Below, one piece after another: positions 1,450 through 15,248 of a stretch of DNA of 32,000 bases (its first letter is position 1; the number at the start of each line of letters is the position of its first letter). A program made the translations under genes and the position numbers. The DNA comes from Methanobacteriaceae archaeon (GTDB lineage: Archaea > Methanobacteriota > Methanobacteria > Methanobacteriales > Methanobacteriaceae), in contig JASEJD010000002.1 in the NCBI GenBank assembly GCA_030016715.1, positions 147,179-179,178 of the forward strand, read 5' to 3'. The notes under the pieces are model-generated. The model did not search any database and was not told the origin of the DNA. It saw nothing but the letters and a program-made list of their open reading frames with translations.

Positions 1450-1579
1450 ATCAGTTTATGATTAGAGTTATTGTTCGGAAATAGGACTTGAGAGAAATAA
1501 ATAAACCTGGAGAAAAAATTTATAAAGTAATTTACCAAGGTTTATTATTGGTCCTTGATTTGAATATGGAGGCGGTATA

Positions 1580-2284
1580 ATTAAGCGACACTCGATATTC
1601 GCATTACTATTTGCTTTCAGCATGGTAATGCTTTCAGTTCCATCTGCTATTGCAGGTATGGACATACAAAATGTAAATGAAAATAATGTTATTAAAGTAG
1701 AACAAAACAATATTCAAAAAGTTGATGCAGCGACTTATAGAAAAGTAGCTACAAAAAAATATTACAAAAAATGGTACAGATCTGGTGGAAAATGGAGATA
1801 CTTCTGGAAATCATACTGGACATATAAGTATGTAAAAACCAGTTCCAACAGTGTCAGTGCTACTAGCAGTTACAGTACAACTTCAAACACTTACCAGAAT
1901 GAAGACCAGAATGAAGATGATAAAGAAAAAGATTCTGGCGATTACTCAACAAGCACTAGTGGTTTGAATTCTGTAGCCAAATATATTAACAGAAACTATA
2001 ATCATCGTCCGGGTGCAGCTCACACTGCAGAGGGCGTACGCAGAACAGGTTATGGAGATTGCTGGGGATTAGCCGACCTGGCAGCTCGTGAATTAAATAA
2101 AAAAGGTTACAAAGTACGTGTAGTACAAGGTCCTAGCAGAGATTCATCAAGACATAGATGGGTACAATTTTTGGCTAATGGGAAATGGAATACCTTTGAA
2201 TCCACAATGGTTACTAAAAGATTTGGTTCCAGACACTATTCATACGCTATAGGAAAACTTAGAACAGTAATCAAGTATTACTAA
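1580..2284 (+). CDS. Secreted paralog 2: signal peptide + Trp/Tyr/Lys/Arg-rich module + acidic/Ser-rich linker + minimal transglutaminase-like domain
   Basis: ORF track gives 1622..2284, starting at the first ATG. The frame is open back to the TAA at 1523 and encodes IKRHSIFALLFAFS upstream of that ATG. That stretch is homologous to the paralog 1 signal peptide. The 32 nt at 1568..1599 are identical to 196..227. The module YRKVATKKYYKKWYRSGGKWRYFWKSYWTYKYVK is at nt 1736..1837. GYGDCWGLADL, RHRWVQF and WNTFEST are present. Confidence 0.85.
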   Translation: MKRHSIFALLFAFSMVMLSVPSAIAGMDIQNVNENNVIKVEQNNIQKVDAATYRKVATKKYYKKWYRSGGKWRYFWKSYWTYKYVKTSSNSVSATSSYSTTSNTYQNEDQNEDDKEKDSGDYSTSTSGLNSVAKYINRNYNHRPGAAHTAEGVRRTGYGDCWGLADLAARELNKKGYKVRVVQGPSRDSSRHRWVQFLANGKWNTFESTMVTKRFGSRHYSYAIGKLRTVIKYY

Positions 2285-2823: not shown

Positions 2824-5172
2824 ATTACGCGAGAAAAAATTTTCGTGGCATTGATATTATTCAGCATTTTAGTTACATGTTCTATAGCTGATGTTAATGC
2901 TAGCGAAGACTATACTACTTTGGAAAATAGAACAAACCATATCAACGACTTCAAAGATTCAGAAGACAATCTCTCATTTAATACAACTATCTCAGAAGAA
3001 GATGAATTAGAAATACTAGAAGATACAAATAATGAAACAACTCTGAACAACAATAACCAACATGATACTTCATATGAATGCGAAGAATGCAATGATAACT
3101 GTTCCGATTATTATTTAGCAGCAGCAGGAGATACTTATGATAATGTCCAAGCTATTTGGATTCAAGCTGCTGATGTGGCAAAACTTAATGCAAATGAACT
3201 AATCAACATGGGCATAACCGACGTATTTGTTCTATGTAAAAGATTTTCAAGCCCTTATTACAGCGAAGTACTTCCACAAGTACTGGCTAAACTTCAAGGC
3301 ACAAATATTCGAGTTCATGCATGGGTTGTTTGCTTTAAAGATGCTTCTGGTAAATGGGTTGATCCTCAAAGCAGTGAAGGTACTCCTACTGTAACCCAAG
3401 TTTTAGTACCTTACTATGAAACGGTTAGAGTTCCAGTTAGAAAATCATATCAAACTACTGAAAAAGTATGGTACAAATCATGGTATAGAGCCGGACGTTA
3501 CAAACAATGGTACAAGACAAGATATAAGATATGGTATAGATCACGAGGACGCTGGTTATATCGTTGGGCAAATAGATGGCGTTACCGTTGGGCTTATAGA
3601 TGGAGATATACATGGAAATATTACAATAGAACCGTGACCAAATACTATACTGCCTATGAGAATCAACAACAGTTAAAATACAAATACGTGACACAAACAA
3701 CGCCCAGTGAACTGACCTACCAACAAGAAATCATTGATTACATCTCAAAACTAGTGAATGACTATGAGATCAATGGGGTGCATCTGGATTATGTTAGATA
3801 TTCTGGAGTCGGAGAGAATGCTGCTTACAAACATAACGGTGATGAAGTAATAACAAACTTTGTTAAAGACGTTTATAATTCAGTTAAATCAATTAAAGCC
3901 AAAGTCGCAGTTTCTGCAGCACTAATGCCGGAATGTGGAGTAAATGCTTATTATTATGGGCAGGATTATGAAAAATTAGCTCCTTATCTAGACTTCATGG
4001 TACCTATGATTTACAAAGGAAACTACAATAAAGATACAGCATGGATAGGAGCCACCACTCAGTATATTGTAAATAAAGCCAACGGAACTCCTGTTATTGC
4101 AGGATTACAAACCTATGTTTCTGATTCAAATATTCAACCAATTCCAGCCTCAGAACTGGAAGGTGATATTGAAGCAGCAATAAGCAATGGTTCCTCGGGT
4201 TATGCATTGTTTAGATACGGTTTAATCGTAAACAATAATTATTCCACTGAAACAGCTAGTGTAACTGTTCAACAAGTACTAACAGCATCCACTAATCTAA
4301 AAAACTATGTTATATCCAATAAAAAACTACCAAACACAATCCAAGTAGGAACATATACTATAAACACTGCACAATTCCTACAAATATTATTAAATACCGT
4401 TGTTCAATTAGATCAAGGCAAATTTGATCCAATACCAGTTAAAACAGTTGGAACAGCACCAAATCCAACGGGACAGAATATTTATGGAAACATAATGCTT
4501 TCAGAATACATTAACAATGCAAAAAATATTCTAAAATTCATCGAAACTAATGGAAGAGCACCAAACTATTCAATTACATCACTAGGAAACTTAAACTACG
4601 AATACTTAGTTTTCAGTTATGCAAAAATCTTAGACTTCTATAAAGTTAATAATCGACTACCAAATTACGCTATTATTCAAACATCCGACATGATATTGTC
4701 TAATCAACAATCTAGTATACCTGCAGAATTACAAGCATTTCTCATGCCAACAGCCAACTGCCAATCAAATAATTCAGTTATTATAAACCTTGCTAATCAA
4801 ATTACTAACGGCTTAACATCAGAATACGACAAAGCAAAGGCTTTATTTGAATGGGTTAGGGATAAATGTAGCTATACTTTCTACTACAATACTAAGTACG
4901 GTGCAGTAAATATGGCCACCAGGAGGAATGGAAACTGTATTGATCAAGCTCACCTATTAAATGCTTTAGCTAGATCATTAGGCATTCCTGCTAGGTATGC
5001 TCATGCACAATGTGAGTTTACTACTATGACGGTTGGACATATTTGGTCGGAACTGTATGTTAATGGACAGTGGATAACTGCGGATCCTACAAGTTCTAGA
5101 AACACCTTTGGAACACAAAACAACTGTAAGATATTATACTGGAAGGGACGATACGCCGAATTACCTTTCTAA
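2824..5172 (+). CDS. Large secreted multidomain paralog 3: signal peptide, acidic Asn-rich region, GH-like TIM barrel (GHL10/DUF4015-like) interrupted by a Trp/Tyr/Arg array, 2 pseudomurein-binding repeats, C-terminal transglutaminase-like Cys-His-Asp core
   Basis: ORF track gives 2845..5172 with a GTG start. The conserved GGAGGCGGT-AAA-ATT block places a candidate start at 2824.
- GH-like cues: VHAWVVCF, GVHLDYVRY and FMVPMIYKGNY.
- PMBR-like segments lie at about 4261..4410 (LKNYVISNKKLPNTIQVGTYTINTAQFLQIL) and about 4495..4680 (AKNILKFIETNGRAPNY...FYKVNNRLPNY).
- TGase core: NGNCIDQAHLLNALARSLGIPARY (Cys codon 4936..4938) and GHIWSELYVNGQWITADPT. Confidence 0.9.
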   Translation: MTREKIFVALILFSILVTCSIADVNASEDYTTLENRTNHINDFKDSEDNLSFNTTISEEDELEILEDTNNETTLNNNNQHDTSYECEECNDNCSDYYLAAAGDTYDNVQAIWIQAADVAKLNANELINMGITDVFVLCKRFSSPYYSEVLPQVLAKLQGTNIRVHAWVVCFKDASGKWVDPQSSEGTPTVTQVLVPYYETVRVPVRKSYQTTEKVWYKSWYRAGRYKQWYKTRYKIWYRSRGRWLYRWANRWRYRWAYRWRYTWKYYNRTVTKYYTAYENQQQLKYKYVTQTTPSELTYQQEIIDYISKLVNDYEINGVHLDYVRYSGVGENAAYKHNGDEVITNFVKDVYNSVKSIKAKVAVSAALMPECGVNAYYYGQDYEKLAPYLDFMVPMIYKGNYNKDTAWIGATTQYIVNKANGTPVIAGLQTYVSDSNIQPIPASELEGDIEAAISNGSSGYALFRYGLIVNNNYSTETASVTVQQVLTASTNLKNYVISNKKLPNTIQVGTYTINTAQFLQILLNTVVQLDQGKFDPIPVKTVGTAPNPTGQNIYGNIMLSEYINNAKNILKFIETNGRAPNYSITSLGNLNYEYLVFSYAKILDFYKVNNRLPNYAIIQTSDMILSNQQSSIPAELQAFLMPTANCQSNNSVIINLANQITNGLTSEYDKAKALFEWVRDKCSYTFYYNTKYGAVNMATRRNGNCIDQAHLLNALARSLGIPARYAHAQCEFTTMTVGHIWSELYVNGQWITADPTSSRNTFGTQNNCKILYWKGRYAELPF
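3553..3624 (+). repeat. Six tandem tetrapeptide units with Trp every 4th residue (WLYR WANR WRYR WAYR WRYT WKYY), coding repeat inside paralog 3
   Basis: Direct reading of codons 3553..3624 shows TGG at 3553, 3565, 3577, 3589, 3601 and 3613. This is part of a wider aromatic/basic insert at 3469..3690. Confidence 0.9.
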
Positions 5173-6884: not shown

Positions 6885-6950
6885 AAAATAAGCTATATCA
6901 AGGCTTTTTTTTGAAAATAAAATAAAAAGATTTAAATAAGATTTATAAAT
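6885..6950 (+). promoter_or_regulatory. Promoter cassette, copy 4 (diverged; TATA-like ATTTATAAAT at 6941..6950)
   Basis: AAAAATAAGCTATATCAAGGCTTTTTTTT resembles the A-run/T-run element of copies 1-3. The TATA-like box lies about 70 nt upstream of the ATT at 7012, so the leader is shorter than in copies 1-3. Confidence 0.4.
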
Positions 6951-7011
6951 TACAATTAATAGTCTAAAAACTACCAATTAAATTTTTAAAGCAAGATTTG
7001 GAGGCGGTAGA

Positions 7012-7806
7012 ATTAAAAGACACTCACTATTTGCATTATTACTAGCTTTAGGCATAATAATGTTTGCATTTCCATCCTCTTTGGGAGGATTGGAATCTGA
7101 AAATGCTAATAATGTTATTAGTATAGATAAAAATGATATGCAGAAAATTAATGCATCTACCTATAAAAAGGTATACTATAAGAAGTGGTATAAATCAGGT
7201 GGGCGCTGGAAATATTACTGGAAATATAAATATGTAAAAATATCCAGCACCGTCAAATCTCCAAGTAAAACCTCTAATACTTCTAATTATAAAACTAGTT
7301 CAACTGATTCTAATAAAACAACTACAACAAAATATAAGAAAGTACGCTACAAGCAATATTATAAACAGTGGTATAAATCAAAGGGGCGCTGGAAATATTA
7401 TTTGAAATATCGCTGGGCAATAAAATATGTTAAATTAACATCTAAAACAGCAAGCACCGTAAAAAGCACCGTAAATAACACCCCTGATCCCTCTAACAAA
7501 TATGGAGCACGCGATGTAAAAGTAACAGAAAATTATGTTCAATGTTCTGGCAGATGTACTTGTAGTCTATATGAAGATTATGATTATCACACATCTAAAT
7601 TTGTCAACTATTGTCCTTACTGCCATAAAAAAGGACTACTGGATTATGAAGAAGGAACCGTGGTAAGTAGCAGTGGAAAGGTTTACAATAATCCTGAGGG
7701 TATGTGGGTTTGCAGTACCAAAAAAGGTGGATGTGATGCAGATTTCTGTCTAGTACATGGTAAAGCCCATGTTACTACTGGTGCAAAGTATTTAACCCCG
7801 GCTTGA
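7012..7806 (+). CDS. Secreted paralog 4: signal peptide + two copies of the Trp/Tyr/Lys/Arg module + C-terminal 8-Cys (putative Zn-ribbon-like) domain
   Basis: ORF track gives 7060..7806. The frame is open back to the TAA at 6979 with no ATG, GTG or TTG. It encodes IKRHSLFALLLALGII upstream of the first ATG. Modules lie at nt 7162..7239 (YKKVYYKKWYKSGGRWKYYWKYKYVK) and 7333..7434 (YKKVRYKQYYKQWYKSKGRWKYYLKYRWAIKYVK). The Cys-rich tail runs from about 7501. Confidence 0.85.
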   Translation: MKRHSLFALLLALGIIMFAFPSSLGGLESENANNVISIDKNDMQKINASTYKKVYYKKWYKSGGRWKYYWKYKYVKISSTVKSPSKTSNTSNYKTSSTDSNKTTTTKYKKVRYKQYYKQWYKSKGRWKYYLKYRWAIKYVKLTSKTASTVKSTVNNTPDPSNKYGARDVKVTENYVQCSGRCTCSLYEDYDYHTSKFVNYCPYCHKKGLLDYEEGTVVSSSGKVYNNPEGMWVCSTKKGGCDADFCLVHGKAHVTTGAKYLTPA

Positions 7807-11926: not shown

Positions 11927-11955
11927 ACTCTATTCAATATAATTTCGGTGATTTG

Positions 11956-13095
11956 ATGAAGTTCAAAAATATTGATATCTTTTCTCCTTATATACTTCTT
12001 TTTGGGGTAATTCTTTACTTGTCACTGGCAGTGATCGCCTTAAAATTAAATATTAAAGGGTTAATGCCCTACTCTGTCATGACTTATTATACTGTTTTTT
12101 ATGGAAGTGTTCTATTTTTTATGGGCATCTTATTTGCAATTTTCATTCAGAGATATTTGAAAATAAAACAAAGTAAATTTAATATTAACAGGATAAAAAA
12201 GATAAATCAACACTTATCCTATGAAAAAATAGTTTTAATCTTGGTTCTTATGGGAATATTACTTCAAGTAATTAATATATATTTTATTGGAGGGATACCT
12301 CTTTTTAGCGGTTATCTAAAAGCTAAAGCAGTTACTAAAATCTGGTTTATATCCTATATTATTTTTTTACCTTCAATTAACCTATTGTTAGCTAAATTTA
12401 ACAGAAAATGGTATTATGCACTTTTTTTCGTAGGTTTTGTTCTTTTTGCATTAACCGGGTATCGTACAACAACCATGGCCATATTAATGAGCGTTTTTAT
12501 AACCAGTTATTATGTAATTAATCTAAAATTTAAATATATAGTAATTTTTTCCATATTTATATTAATCAGCGGCCTTGCTCTGGGTTTTATGGCAGTTATG
12601 GCCATTGAATGGCAGCAATGGGCTCTAAATCCATTGGATTTATTTCTTTACCGTGCTGGTTATACCCTTAATGTGTTAGATCGGGTGGTGGAGTTACAAG
12701 GAGCAACTACCGGGTCCTTGTTTTATTATACATTAACTGGATTTTTTGAATCTGCGGATCCTCGAATAATTATAGGGGAAACTGTATTAAAATATCGTGT
12801 ATCCACTACTTCAACTATTTTTGGCCCAGCTTTACTTGATTGGGGCTACATTGCACTTGGGGTGCAGATGTTTTTATTAGGATTTTTCCTTAAATTATTA
12901 CATATTCTACAAAAAATTAAAAAAGGAATTTTTACAGCTTTTTATTCTGTTATATTAGCACATTCACTTATATGGATAGAGACTGGGCCTACAGACTTAG
13001 TAGTATGGATCTTTTTTATTCTCAGCTTATTTTTAATGTTAATTTGTTATGAATTTAATATATACACAGTGAATAAAACTGGGGATTTGAAATGA
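11956..13095 (+). CDS. Polytopic membrane protein, possibly an oligosaccharide repeat-unit (Wzy-like) polymerase
   Basis: About 10 hydrophobic segments. SD GGTGAT (11947..11952) followed by N3 and ATG 11956; the track start at 11953 is the TTG directly abutting the SD. The function is guessed only from topology and the coupled downstream glycosyltransferase-like gene. Confidence 0.6.
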   Translation: MKFKNIDIFSPYILLFGVILYLSLAVIALKLNIKGLMPYSVMTYYTVFYGSVLFFMGILFAIFIQRYLKIKQSKFNINRIKKINQHLSYEKIVLILVLMGILLQVINIYFIGGIPLFSGYLKAKAVTKIWFISYIIFLPSINLLLAKFNRKWYYALFFVGFVLFALTGYRTTTMAILMSVFITSYYVINLKFKYIVIFSIFILISGLALGFMAVMAIEWQQWALNPLDLFLYRAGYTLNVLDRVVELQGATTGSLFYYTLTGFFESADPRIIIGETVLKYRVSTTSTIFGPALLDWGYIALGVQMFLLGFFLKLLHILQKIKKGIFTAFYSVILAHSLIWIETGPTDLVVWIFFILSLFLMLICYEFNIYTVNKTGDLK

Positions 13096-14153: not shown

Positions 14154-14417
14154 TTTCTCGTGTTTAAATAATTCAATTAGTTTTTAGTGTAATAAAAAAT
14201 TAGCAACACAATAAATTTTAATTATATTCCTTTAATATACTGTTTAAATTATTTGATGGTTTTAGAATTTCTCAATACCCTCAATTATTCGTTTTTAAAC
14301 TTTATGGTTTGTAAAAAAATTGAATGATCACTCAAATTACCAGTATAAAAACTTAGTCATAACAATAAAATCAAAAAATACTTATTAGATTATTAAAATA
14401 GGTTTTTTGGTGATATA

Positions 14418-15248
14418 ATGGTAGTTAAAATAGGAGTTATAAAATGTGGTAATATCGGTACCTCTCCTGTAATTGACTTATTACTTGATGAGAGGGCTGA
14501 CAGACCTAATATAGACACATGTGTAATTGGTTCTGGAGCTAAGATGAACCCAGAAGAAATCGAAAAAGCAGTACCTTTAATGCTGGATATGGACCGGGAC
14601 TTTGTTATATTCATAAGCCCAAACCCTGGTGCACCAGGACCTGCTAAAGCAAGGGAATTATTAGCTGCCGCAGATGTTCCTGCAATAATTATTGGTGACG
14701 CTCCTGGATTAAGATCTAAAGATGAAATGGATGAACAAGGATTAGGTTACATTATAGTTAAAGCAGATCCTATGATTGGAGCTAGAAGGGAACTCTTAGA
14801 CCCAACTGAAATGGCATCATTCAATTCTGATGTAATTAAAGTATTAGCATTAACCGGAGCTTACCGAGTAGTACAAAACACTATAGATGCAGCAATTGCT
14901 AATGTTGAAGCTGGAAGTGAAATAGAACTTCCAAAAGTTGTTATATCTCGTGACGTTGCAATTGAAGCAGCTGATTTTGCTAACCCATATGCTAAAGCCA
15001 AAGCAATGGCTGCATATGAAATCGCAACCAAAGTTGCTGATATTGACGTTGAAGGTTGTTTCATGGTACAAGATGCTGCAAAATACATACCAATTGTTGC
15101 ATCAGCACACGAAATGATAGCTACAGCAGCTAAACTTGCTACTGAAGCTCGTGAAATAGAAAAAGCCAACGATACTGTAGTTAGAACCCCACACGGTGGA
15201 GACGGTAGCACAGTCTCAAAAGTAGCTTTAATGGACAAACCACAATAA
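14418..15248 (+). CDS. mtd: F420-dependent methylenetetrahydromethanopterin dehydrogenase
   Basis: The N-terminus MVVKIGVIKCGNIGTSPVIDLLLDERADRPNID is essentially the Mtd signature, and the length is 276 aa. SD GGTGAT (14409..14414) is followed by N3 and ATG. Confidence 0.95.
   Translation: MVVKIGVIKCGNIGTSPVIDLLLDERADRPNIDTCVIGSGAKMNPEEIEKAVPLMLDMDRDFVIFISPNPGAPGPAKARELLAAADVPAIIIGDAPGLRSKDEMDEQGLGYIIVKADPMIGARRELLDPTEMASFNSDVIKVLALTGAYRVVQNTIDAAIANVEAGSEIELPKVVISRDVAIEAADFANPYAKAKAMAAYEIATKVADIDVEGCFMVQDAAKYIPIVASAHEMIATAAKLATEAREIEKANDTVVRTPHGGDGSTVSKVALMDKPQ

Follow-up and report, generated by a model that had tools for sequence, protein, structure and literature searches.

Four genes on the + strand of the 32,000-nucleotide (nt) stretch of Methanobacteriaceae DNA analyzed here (contig JASEJD010000002.1, positions 147,179 to 179,178; hereafter the window, numbered from its first letter) have a common N-terminal leader and lie between positions 1 and 7806. 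In all four, and in the gene family to which they belong in Methanobacteriaceae, ATT is very probably the true initiation codon, most likely acting as a throttle on translation. The first-pass annotation had described a conserved ATT start in these four paralogs; this is supported, since the ATT is kept in relatives and the coding signature begins at the ATT, and the four-paralog observation is by all appearances a family-wide feature covering at least five genera. New here is a putative AUU-initiated gene set that is archaeal, multi-gene and endowed with a conserved sequence context. Read as open frames from ATT, the four genes are as follows.

208 to 876, + strand: paralog 1, 222 amino acids (aa) from ATT 208; signal peptide, basic-aromatic segment and transglutaminase-like domain
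1580 to 2284, + strand: paralog 2, 234 aa from ATT 1580; signal peptide, basic-aromatic segment and transglutaminase-like domain
2824 to 5172, + strand: paralog 3, 782 aa from ATT 2824; signal peptide, DUF4015 glycosyl-hydrolase-like domain, pseudomurein-binding repeat (PMBR) and transglutaminase/Pei-like domain
7012 to 7806, + strand: paralog 4, 264 aa from ATT 7012; the same leader and basic-aromatic repeats

That these genes are paralogs, as first proposed, was borne out by an identity of 65% over the full length between paralogs 1 and 2 and of 55% over the N-terminal 115 aa between paralogs 1 and 4, with paralog 3 having the leader layout and the basic-aromatic segment in common with the others. 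The window has exactly four copies of GGAGGCGGT-NNN-ATT, and every one of them is in frame with the coding sequence of a secreted transglutaminase-like or pseudomurein-binding protein. A search for GGAGGCGGTNNNATT with 1 mismatch allowed returned the + strand positions 196, 1568, 2812 and 7000 and no further site in the window, and 100 dinucleotide-preserving shuffles contained on average 0.02 such sites against the four observed. On re-reading, the ATT positions (208, 1580, 2824 and 7012) and the preceding triplets (ATA, ATA, AAA and AGA) had been given correctly. The Shine-Dalgarno (SD) sequences and start codons are:

196 to 210, + strand: paralog 1, SD GGAGGCGGT at 196-204, spacer ATA, ATT at 208-210; predicted SD/anti-SD duplex of -12.1 kcal/mol
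1568 to 1582, + strand: paralog 2, SD GGAGGCGGT at 1568-1576, spacer ATA, ATT at 1580-1582
2812 to 2826, + strand: paralog 3, SD GGAGGCGGT, spacer AAA, ATT at 2824-2826; predicted duplex of -12.8 kcal/mol
7000 to 7014, + strand: paralog 4, SD GGAGGCGGT, spacer AGA, ATT at 7012-7014

The predicted SD duplexes of -12.1 to -12.8 kcal/mol, calculated with an anti-SD taken from general knowledge of Methanobacteriales 16S rRNA, are the strongest among 23 window genes. In 252 kb of Methanobacteriaceae DNA, the ATG ahead of long open reading frames (ORFs) peaks 4 nt past GGTGA and 6-7 nt past GGAGG; the family ATT stands 7 nt past GGAGG, i.e. in the register of canonical starts in the same genomes. 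The GGTGAT-N3-ATG geometry earlier pointed out at mtd (14409-14420) and at the MurJ-like flippase, trpB2 and PHP genes was confirmed, and a fifth window gene, which is O-antigen-polymerase-like, also has it if started at ATG 11956 (GGTGAT-TTG-ATG, window 11953-11958, places this ATG in the standard register), the mechanical ORF start at TTG 11953 being probably wrong.

The ATT was followed into relatives by two scans. A genome collection was scanned with peptide patterns of the C-terminal domains, blind to the start region, which gave 21 loci from Methanobacterium-like metagenome-assembled genomes (MAGs), Methanothermobacter, Methanobrevibacter, Ca. Methanorudis and Ca. Methanobinarius (five named genera), with M. 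filiformis, M. cuticularis and M. curvatus as isolates among them. In 21/21 loci the domain-carrying frame was unbroken back to an ATT that follows GGAGGCGGT or its variant GAGGTGAW at a distance of 3 nt, and ATT was present in 30/30 once the extra paralogs of these loci were counted. A metagenome pattern scan, in which the start codon was left free, returned mostly chance matches in unrelated GC-richer DNA; at least 16 true family members were found among the matches listed, 13 with ATT, 3 with ATC and none with a canonical start. The same leader is present in the complete genome of Methanothermobacter sp. MT-2 (AP017647.1, at about 1,372,040). The 49 distinct contexts collected (for the metagenome part, among the matches listed), which are related by descent, thus comprised ATT in 46 and ATC in 3, with no ATG, GTG, TTG or ATA. 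Comparison of orthologous loci had been put forward as a check on the ATT start: the position is conserved and was replaced by ATG, GTG or TTG in 0/49 contexts, while frame-disrupting changes between ATT and the downstream ATG, which would have pointed to an untranslated leader, were seen in 0/21 loci. Ile codons elsewhere in the same ORFs are mixed (ATT 53%, ATA 36%, ATC 11%), so that an ordinary Ile codon would be expected to vary, unlike the ATT at the start position. The neighboring His, Arg and Ser codons do vary synonymously (His, CAT 11 and CAC 8; Arg, CGA 17 and AGA 9). ATC in place of ATT, the only variant among the matches listed, occurs in one clade (L029:11329, and L060 and L079, both on the - strand) whose proteins begin IKRHSLLV... 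and combine a DUF4015/GH18-like region with PMBR in up to 887 aa.

Closer examination of the alignment showed that information content drops sharply upstream of the SD. After the ATT there is three-base periodicity, with second-position T invariant as for hydrophobic codons, and the synonymous fraction among differing codons is 0.195 in frame as compared with 0.10 in frame +1 and 0.04 upstream. The bases flanking the ATT are themselves constrained: A is found at -3 in 30/30, at -1 in 29/30 and at +4 in 29/30 family members, with -2 free, as compared with 9/41, 14/41 and 23/41, respectively, in the SD-led genes with canonical starts at these loci. The +4 A is kept whether the codon is for Lys, Ser (AGT), Asn, Thr or Arg, which points to a constraint on the nucleotides themselves, and A at -3, -1 and +4 may form a context peculiar to near-cognate initiation.

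205-213, 1577-1585, 2821-2829 and 7009-7017, + strand: A-context sites in the window, also in relatives

Signal peptides were judged by a heuristic descriptor (n-region charge, uncharged stretch, and small residues at -3/-1). Read from ATT, the four products have two K/R followed by 17-23 uncharged residues and small-residue ends (AIA/G, VNA/S, SVG/V and SLG/G), as in paralog 1:

208 to 282, + strand: predicted Sec signal peptide of paralog 1, (M)KRHS-IFALLFALGIAMLAI-PSSVG; two K/R, then 23 uncharged residues

The earlier statement that the signal-peptide n-region and much of the h-region are encoded upstream of the first canonical start holds, in that only the ATT reading supplies both; the canonical alternatives leave 11-15 uncharged residues and no charge, and the signal peptide of paralog 1 is lost or cut when read from TTG 232 or ATG 256. 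Open-frame reading confirmed the first canonical starts at ATG 1622, GTG 2845 and ATG 7060, and likewise that TTG 187 of paralog 1 lies 5' of the SD and that its equivalent in paralog 2 is out of frame through a 1-nt difference. Paralog 1 has an additional TTG at 232 (codon 9), where paralog 2 has the synonymous TTA. The nearest upstream in-frame stop of paralog 2 had been placed wrongly at TAA 1523: TGA 1556-1558 is nearer, so that the startless leader of this gene covers only 7 codons including the SD, which makes the argument stronger. Signal peptides are cleaved, and the start of the precursor is therefore not visible to ordinary proteomics.

In the mechanism proposed, each gene would be transcribed separately, from a TATA box 80-140 nt ahead of the ATT, and its leader is predicted usually to fold into a long hairpin ending 0-5 nt before an exposed, unusually strong SD, GGAGGCGGU. 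Pairing of this SD with the 16S rRNA 3' end would set the codon 3 nt downstream in the P site, a register shown statistically to be the one that AUG occupies in these genomes' ordinary genes. As known from bacteria and eukaryotes, the initiator tRNA is complementary to AUU at two bases, with a mismatch at the third; its decoding of AUU would make initiation possible but inefficient, and the near-invariant A at -3, -1 and +4 would provide a family-specific context round the weak codon. The product would begin M-K/S/N/T-R-H-S and continue with a hydrophobic core up to a cleavage site of small residues, as in a Sec-type signal peptide, which would export transglutaminase/Pei-like, DUF4015 glycosyl-hydrolase-like and pseudomurein-binding enzymes to the pseudomurein wall. 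A strong SD joined to a weak start codon, kept by selection against both ATG and ATA, would most likely hold the synthesis of these potentially wall-damaging enzymes low, and this synthesis may also be sensitive to how strictly start codons are selected.

The likely purpose of the ATT would be to throttle the translation of potentially lytic wall enzymes, which would cut or cross-link the cell's own pseudomurein, or to make this translation sensitive to initiation fidelity. The main argument is that ATG is one transversion away and is never seen, even though neighboring synonymous sites are saturated, which suggests that the weak codon itself is selected. A wider reading would make the family an order-wide Methanobacteriales translational regulon, in which exported pseudomurein-remodelling enzymes have one leader in common (5'-terminal hairpin, very strong SD, and AUU in A-N-A-AUU-A), the stringency of aIF1/aIF1A/aIF2 sets their synthesis and the -3/+4 adenines are Kozak-like; this is tentative and on present evidence unlikely. 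If true, wall remodelling would be coupled to the state of the translation apparatus.

Among the alternatives, one accepts ATT as the start and dispenses with the throttle, the codon being decoded efficiently behind this very strong SD and in its A-rich context, and having simply been passed on with a leader cassette that was duplicated. The elements of this cassette (promoter layout, hairpin, SD, ATT, leader peptide) do appear to have been transmitted together through duplications and domain shuffling, and the strongest SD in the window could compensate for a weak codon. Equivalence of the two codons, however, predicts ATG by a single T-to-G change somewhere, and this was found in 0/49 DNA contexts and 0/84 called proteins although neighboring synonymous sites (His and Arg codons) became saturated over the same time span; we consider an ATT free of any throttle to be quite unlikely.

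Initiation at the first downstream canonical codon (ATG 1622, GTG 2845, ATG 7060, and TTG 232 or ATG 256), with the ATT region untranslated, is how nearly all database homologues are annotated; in addition, GTG 2845 of paralog 3 leaves a 15-residue uncharged stretch, and a Methanobrevibacter subclade has an ATG two codons past the ATT. Such a start is nevertheless very unlikely. The downstream canonical codons have no SD ahead of them and no conserved position, the first of them being found anywhere between codons 2 and 259. Six relatives have this first codon at least 76 codons downstream, where its use would delete 76-259 residues. Such a start would also remove the K/R n-region, with 11-13 uncharged residues left in paralogs 2 and 4, although pseudomurein-binding and wall-acting domains require export. 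Furthermore, the supposed leader has the periodicity and the synonymous changes of coding sequence, and its frame is unbroken in 21/21 independently found loci.

Several points nonetheless count against an ATT start or against its serving as a throttle. The stretch read from GTG 2845 in paralog 3 might function as a partial signal, and the ATG of the Methanobrevibacter subclade could be used instead of its ATT. No report of an archaeal AUU start in vivo was found in the literature. The anti-SD on which the duplex energies rest came from general knowledge and not from a 16S 3' end in the data; the counts of contexts overstate the number of independent observations, these being related by descent; and throttling is deduced from the absence of ATG alone. 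The subclade concerned comprises termite-gut Methanobrevibacter/Methanorudis, where ATG stands two codons past a retained ATT (ATT AGG ATG AAA) and sister sequences have ATA (ATT ACG ATA AAA); the start codon may have switched here in the course of evolution between ATT and ATG, as an escape route.

L012:1252-1260 and L013:512-520: ATG two codons after ATT
L011:517-525 and L015:4768-4776: sisters with ATA at this place; proteins of the subclade, P0045-P0058

A start at another adjacent non-canonical codon, either the -1 triplet (ATA/ACA/AAA/AGA) or codon 2 (AAG/ACG), would make the ATT a plain Ile codon. The -1 triplet is the near-cognate ATA in 12/30 members, and the ATC that replaces ATT in one clade is synonymous for Ile. 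The triplet is not kept near-cognate, however (ACA 8, AAA 7, AGA 2), and lies 0 nt past the 9-mer, out of register with canonical genes, while a plain Ile codon predicts ATA in about one-third of contexts where none of the 49 has it, which makes this alternative highly improbable. A start still further upstream, with GGAGGCGGT read as Gly-Gly-Gly (MVFEYGGGIIKRHS..., MPDFKV...GGGIIKRHS...) as called for the few homologues that have an in-frame ATG or TTG (P0002, P0003, P0019, P0028-P0031), is scarcely credible given that about half of the members have an in-frame stop within 4-12 codons before the ATT (median about 12 codons; 4 codons in L011, L015 and L021, where the TGA overlaps the SD), that most members have no ATG, GTG or TTG between the upstream stop and the ATT, that the upstream sequence is unconserved with non-triplet indels, and that variants of the 9-mer move toward the rRNA complement (GGAGGTGAT, GAGGTGAA) and not toward synonymous Gly codons.

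The ATT start bears directly on public annotation. Not one of the 84 database homologues inspected has its start at the ATT; they are either too short, beginning at scattered downstream Met, Val and Leu codons, or too long, with an extension through a "GGG" that is the translated SD. There is thus a high probability that all 84 carry a wrong N-terminus; the export signal would then be missing or buried, making localization predictions unreliable. Gene finders limited to ATG, GTG and TTG would systematically miss such ATT starts, and the 15-nt signature GGAGGCGGT-ANA-ATT offers a simple start-correction rule for Methanobacteriaceae. No start-codon remark on the ATT-led family was found in the literature. 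In a pangenomic study whose best candidates for making the pseudomurein cross-link are exported transglutaminases (PMC11915815), the term "start codon" has 0 occurrences.

AUU starts are rare, and those known to us are in single bacterial genes. The closest precedent is ebpA, encoding a pilus tip protein of E. faecalis, with an ATT start that is conserved in all strains and has an SD ahead of it (Montealegre et al. 2015, PMC4447247). In that study no protein was made once stop codons had been placed between ATT and ATG, and changing ATT to ATG raised a reporter about 3.5-fold. As here, the protein is secreted, to the cell surface in this case, and annotation from the ATG leaves out its export signal, the mis-annotation having the same logic. 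However, ebpA is a single gene of one bacterial species, whereas the present family is multi-gene, has several domain architectures and covers at least five archaeal genera; it also has extra conserved context bases and would depend on aIF1, aIF1A and aIF2 instead of IF3, and it is known from sequence alone. In E. coli, infC, encoding IF3, has a conserved AUU behind a functional SD and its output depends on start-codon proofreading (PMC4447247). The product of infC is the proofreading factor itself, which closes a feedback loop, whereas the products here are exported transglutaminase-like, DUF4015 and PMBR proteins and not initiation factors, so that an infC-type autoregulatory loop does not apply and any dependence of these wall enzymes on fidelity would be feed-forward. 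The AUU of E. coli pcnB limits poly(A) polymerase I, an enzyme harmful in excess (cited in PMC4447247), and the same rationale is proposed here for potentially lytic pseudomurein enzymes, although pcnB is a bacterial, cytoplasmic, single-gene case. Eukaryotic near-cognate initiation and the Kozak context (purine at -3) likewise involve constrained flanks, as with the A at -3 and +4 here; unlike in eukaryotes, the start site would be set by SD pairing and not by scanning. Archaeal initiation factors are homologues of eIF1, eIF1A and eIF2. The family, having kept AUU and a fixed flanking context across at least five archaeal genera, is a natural system for the study of start-codon fidelity, combining an archaeal ribosome, eukaryote-like factors and a bacterial-like SD.

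With regard to the products, the PeiW/PeiP pseudomurein endoisopeptidases (Peptidase C71) are likewise transglutaminase-fold Cys enzymes with pseudomurein-binding repeats; unlike the ATT-led proteins, they are phage enzymes without signal peptides. Kin of the ATT-led enzymes are the exported Methanobacteriales transglutaminases proposed as the cross-linking enzyme (OG0000044, PMC11915815). The family includes the published best candidates for the pseudomurein cross-linking enzyme along with Pei-like hydrolases, and inhibitors of methanogens in the rumen and gut could be aimed at these wall enzymes, which are therefore of interest as targets.

Wall-related domains were found in all ATT-led proteins tested. 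In the Pfam comparison (gathering cut-offs of 23 bits for Transglut_core, PF01841, and 22 bits for Peptidase_C71, PF12386), paralogs 3 and 2 scored above the Transglut_core cut-off with 87 and 25.5 bits, respectively, while paralog 1 fell below it (19.4 bits, E=1.3e-3), yet is 65% identical to paralog 2. The Cys, the His and the flanking motifs of the transglutaminase-like domain are invariant in alignment A2. Peptidase_C71 gave 20.8 bits for paralog 3 and 24.5 bits for a relative in L029. Paralog 3 matched the transglutaminase-like cysteine protease 3isr in the PDB and, weakly, PeiW (8jx4, E = 0.0059); PMBR and Transglut_core are strong matches in this protein and Peptidase_C71 and PeiW weak ones. 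A PDB profile search with the small-paralog alignment gave no match, and NCBIfam held no model for the ATT-led family. Paralog 4 is not in PF01841 and its C-terminal domain had no Pfam or NCBIfam match; this C-terminus (window 7480-7803) is Cys-rich (CSGRCTC...CPYCHKK...C...C..C), replacing the transglutaminase domain behind the same ATT leader, and an orthologue is present at L001:11496. A K/Y/W/R-rich low-complexity segment (e.g. YKKVYYKKYYKKWYKSGGRWRYYW), termed basic-aromatic above, follows the signal peptide in all four paralogs and most relatives; it had no Pfam match and may be a wall-binding module.

About 370-480, 1740-1850, 3500-3640, and 7150-7240 and 7330-7430, + strand: basic-aromatic segments of paralogs 1 to 4, twice in paralog 4

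Within the 252 kb of Methanobacteriaceae DNA, a search for strong-SD near-cognate starts in startless leaders returned the ATT-led family only, two apparent extra genes being rejected since they have a TTG start (L008, position 816) and an ATG start (L010, position 8565). In contrast to the ATT-led family, a secreted 287-aa protein (MKKYIAGFLLVLML...) encoded 2-3 kb from ATT-led genes uses GAGGTGAT-N3-ATG, i.e. an identical geometry with a canonical start, which argues that ATT is family-specific and not general to exported proteins.

L002 (start 8954), L004 (8818), L009 (8700) and L101 (2677), all - strand: secreted 287-aa protein

The leaders upstream of the SD were also analyzed for structure. 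A predicted hairpin reaching from about the expected transcription start to within 0-5 nt of the SD was found in 3/4 paralogs and many relatives (e.g. L001:7169-7268, L061, L024, L002 and L009); it is not universal, paralog 4 being without it.

118 to 190, + strand: paralog 1, predicted hairpin of the 5' untranslated region (5'UTR); RNAfold -13.6 kcal/mol; ends 5 nt before the SD
1472 to 1566, + strand: paralog 2, predicted 5'UTR hairpin; RNAfold -20.0 kcal/mol, leader z = -1.96; ends 1 nt before the SD
2732 to 2811, + strand: paralog 3, predicted 5'UTR hairpin; RNAfold -19.5 kcal/mol, leader z = -3.75; abuts the SD

For paralog 3, 0/200 shuffles were as stable in the leader test and 0/200 as good in the arm test, and the SD-adjacent arm of paralog 1 pairs upstream better than 95.5% of shuffles. 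Across the family, the 14 nt adjoining the SD pair upstream better than 95% of shuffles in 12/45 members (p<=0.05; about 2 expected), and a 5'UTR hairpin as a feature of the family is suggestive as modeled. The hairpin arms differ between clades (GUUCAA/UUGAAC, GUCUAAA/UUUAGAC and AUGUUCUU/AAGAACAU).

Two other arrangements were rejected. An SD-sequestering hairpin (SD with codons 3-5, CGA-CAY-UCG), predicted for paralog 2, had no support across the family: RNAalifold on 45 sequences gave no consensus structure, its pairs were formed in 64.2% as compared with 63.2% in shuffles (83/500 shuffles as high), its inner pairs showed no compensatory changes, and members without the RHS motif still keep the ATT. 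Stop-start coupling to an upstream ORF, by a TAA or TAG overlapping ATT-AAG or ATT-AGT in another frame, was ruled out by paralog 1, in which the coupling frame has no start codon back to the preceding stop at 174.

Further upstream, a TTTATATA or TTTAAATA box stands 80-140 nt ahead of each ATT, at a similar distance in relatives of other genera, and these TATA-like boxes would be the promoters of the ATT-led genes. They are preceded by an oligo-T run, often with GC and an A-run before it, in a layout kept across genera (L001-L005, L009, L029, L033, L020 and L202:1360-1410); this run could be an upstream terminator, an insulator or a transcription-factor site common to the family.

84 to 91, + strand: putative archaeal TATA box TTTATATA of paralog 1, read from the sequence
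1440-1447, 2701-2708 and 6931-6938 (TTTAAATA), + strand: putative TATA equivalents, likewise read
58-63, 1415-1421, 2675-2681 and 6905-6912, + strand: oligo-T runs, 18-20 nt upstream of the TATA box

Judged by its closest relatives, the window probably comes from a Methanobacterium-like methanogen. Its G+C content is low (32%) and, beside the paralogs, it contains mtd, fae-hps and trpB2 as well as envelope genes (O-antigen-polymerase-like, GT28/MurG-like, MurJ-like flippase and CobQ-like amidotransferase). The window has no tRNA genes, and a scan of it with Rfam 15 gave no match at gathering score. A phage or provirus origin of the family was rejected after a pattern scan of viral contigs, in which 59 matches included 0 family members. 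Two of the loci, L001 (JBNGDB010000022.1) and L010 (JBNGDB010000008.1), come from a MAG labeled "Methanomicrobiales archaeon" that is syntenic with the window, with four ATT-led paralogs in the same order, and carries Methanobacteriaceae-type pseudomurein genes; its taxonomic label is probably wrong.

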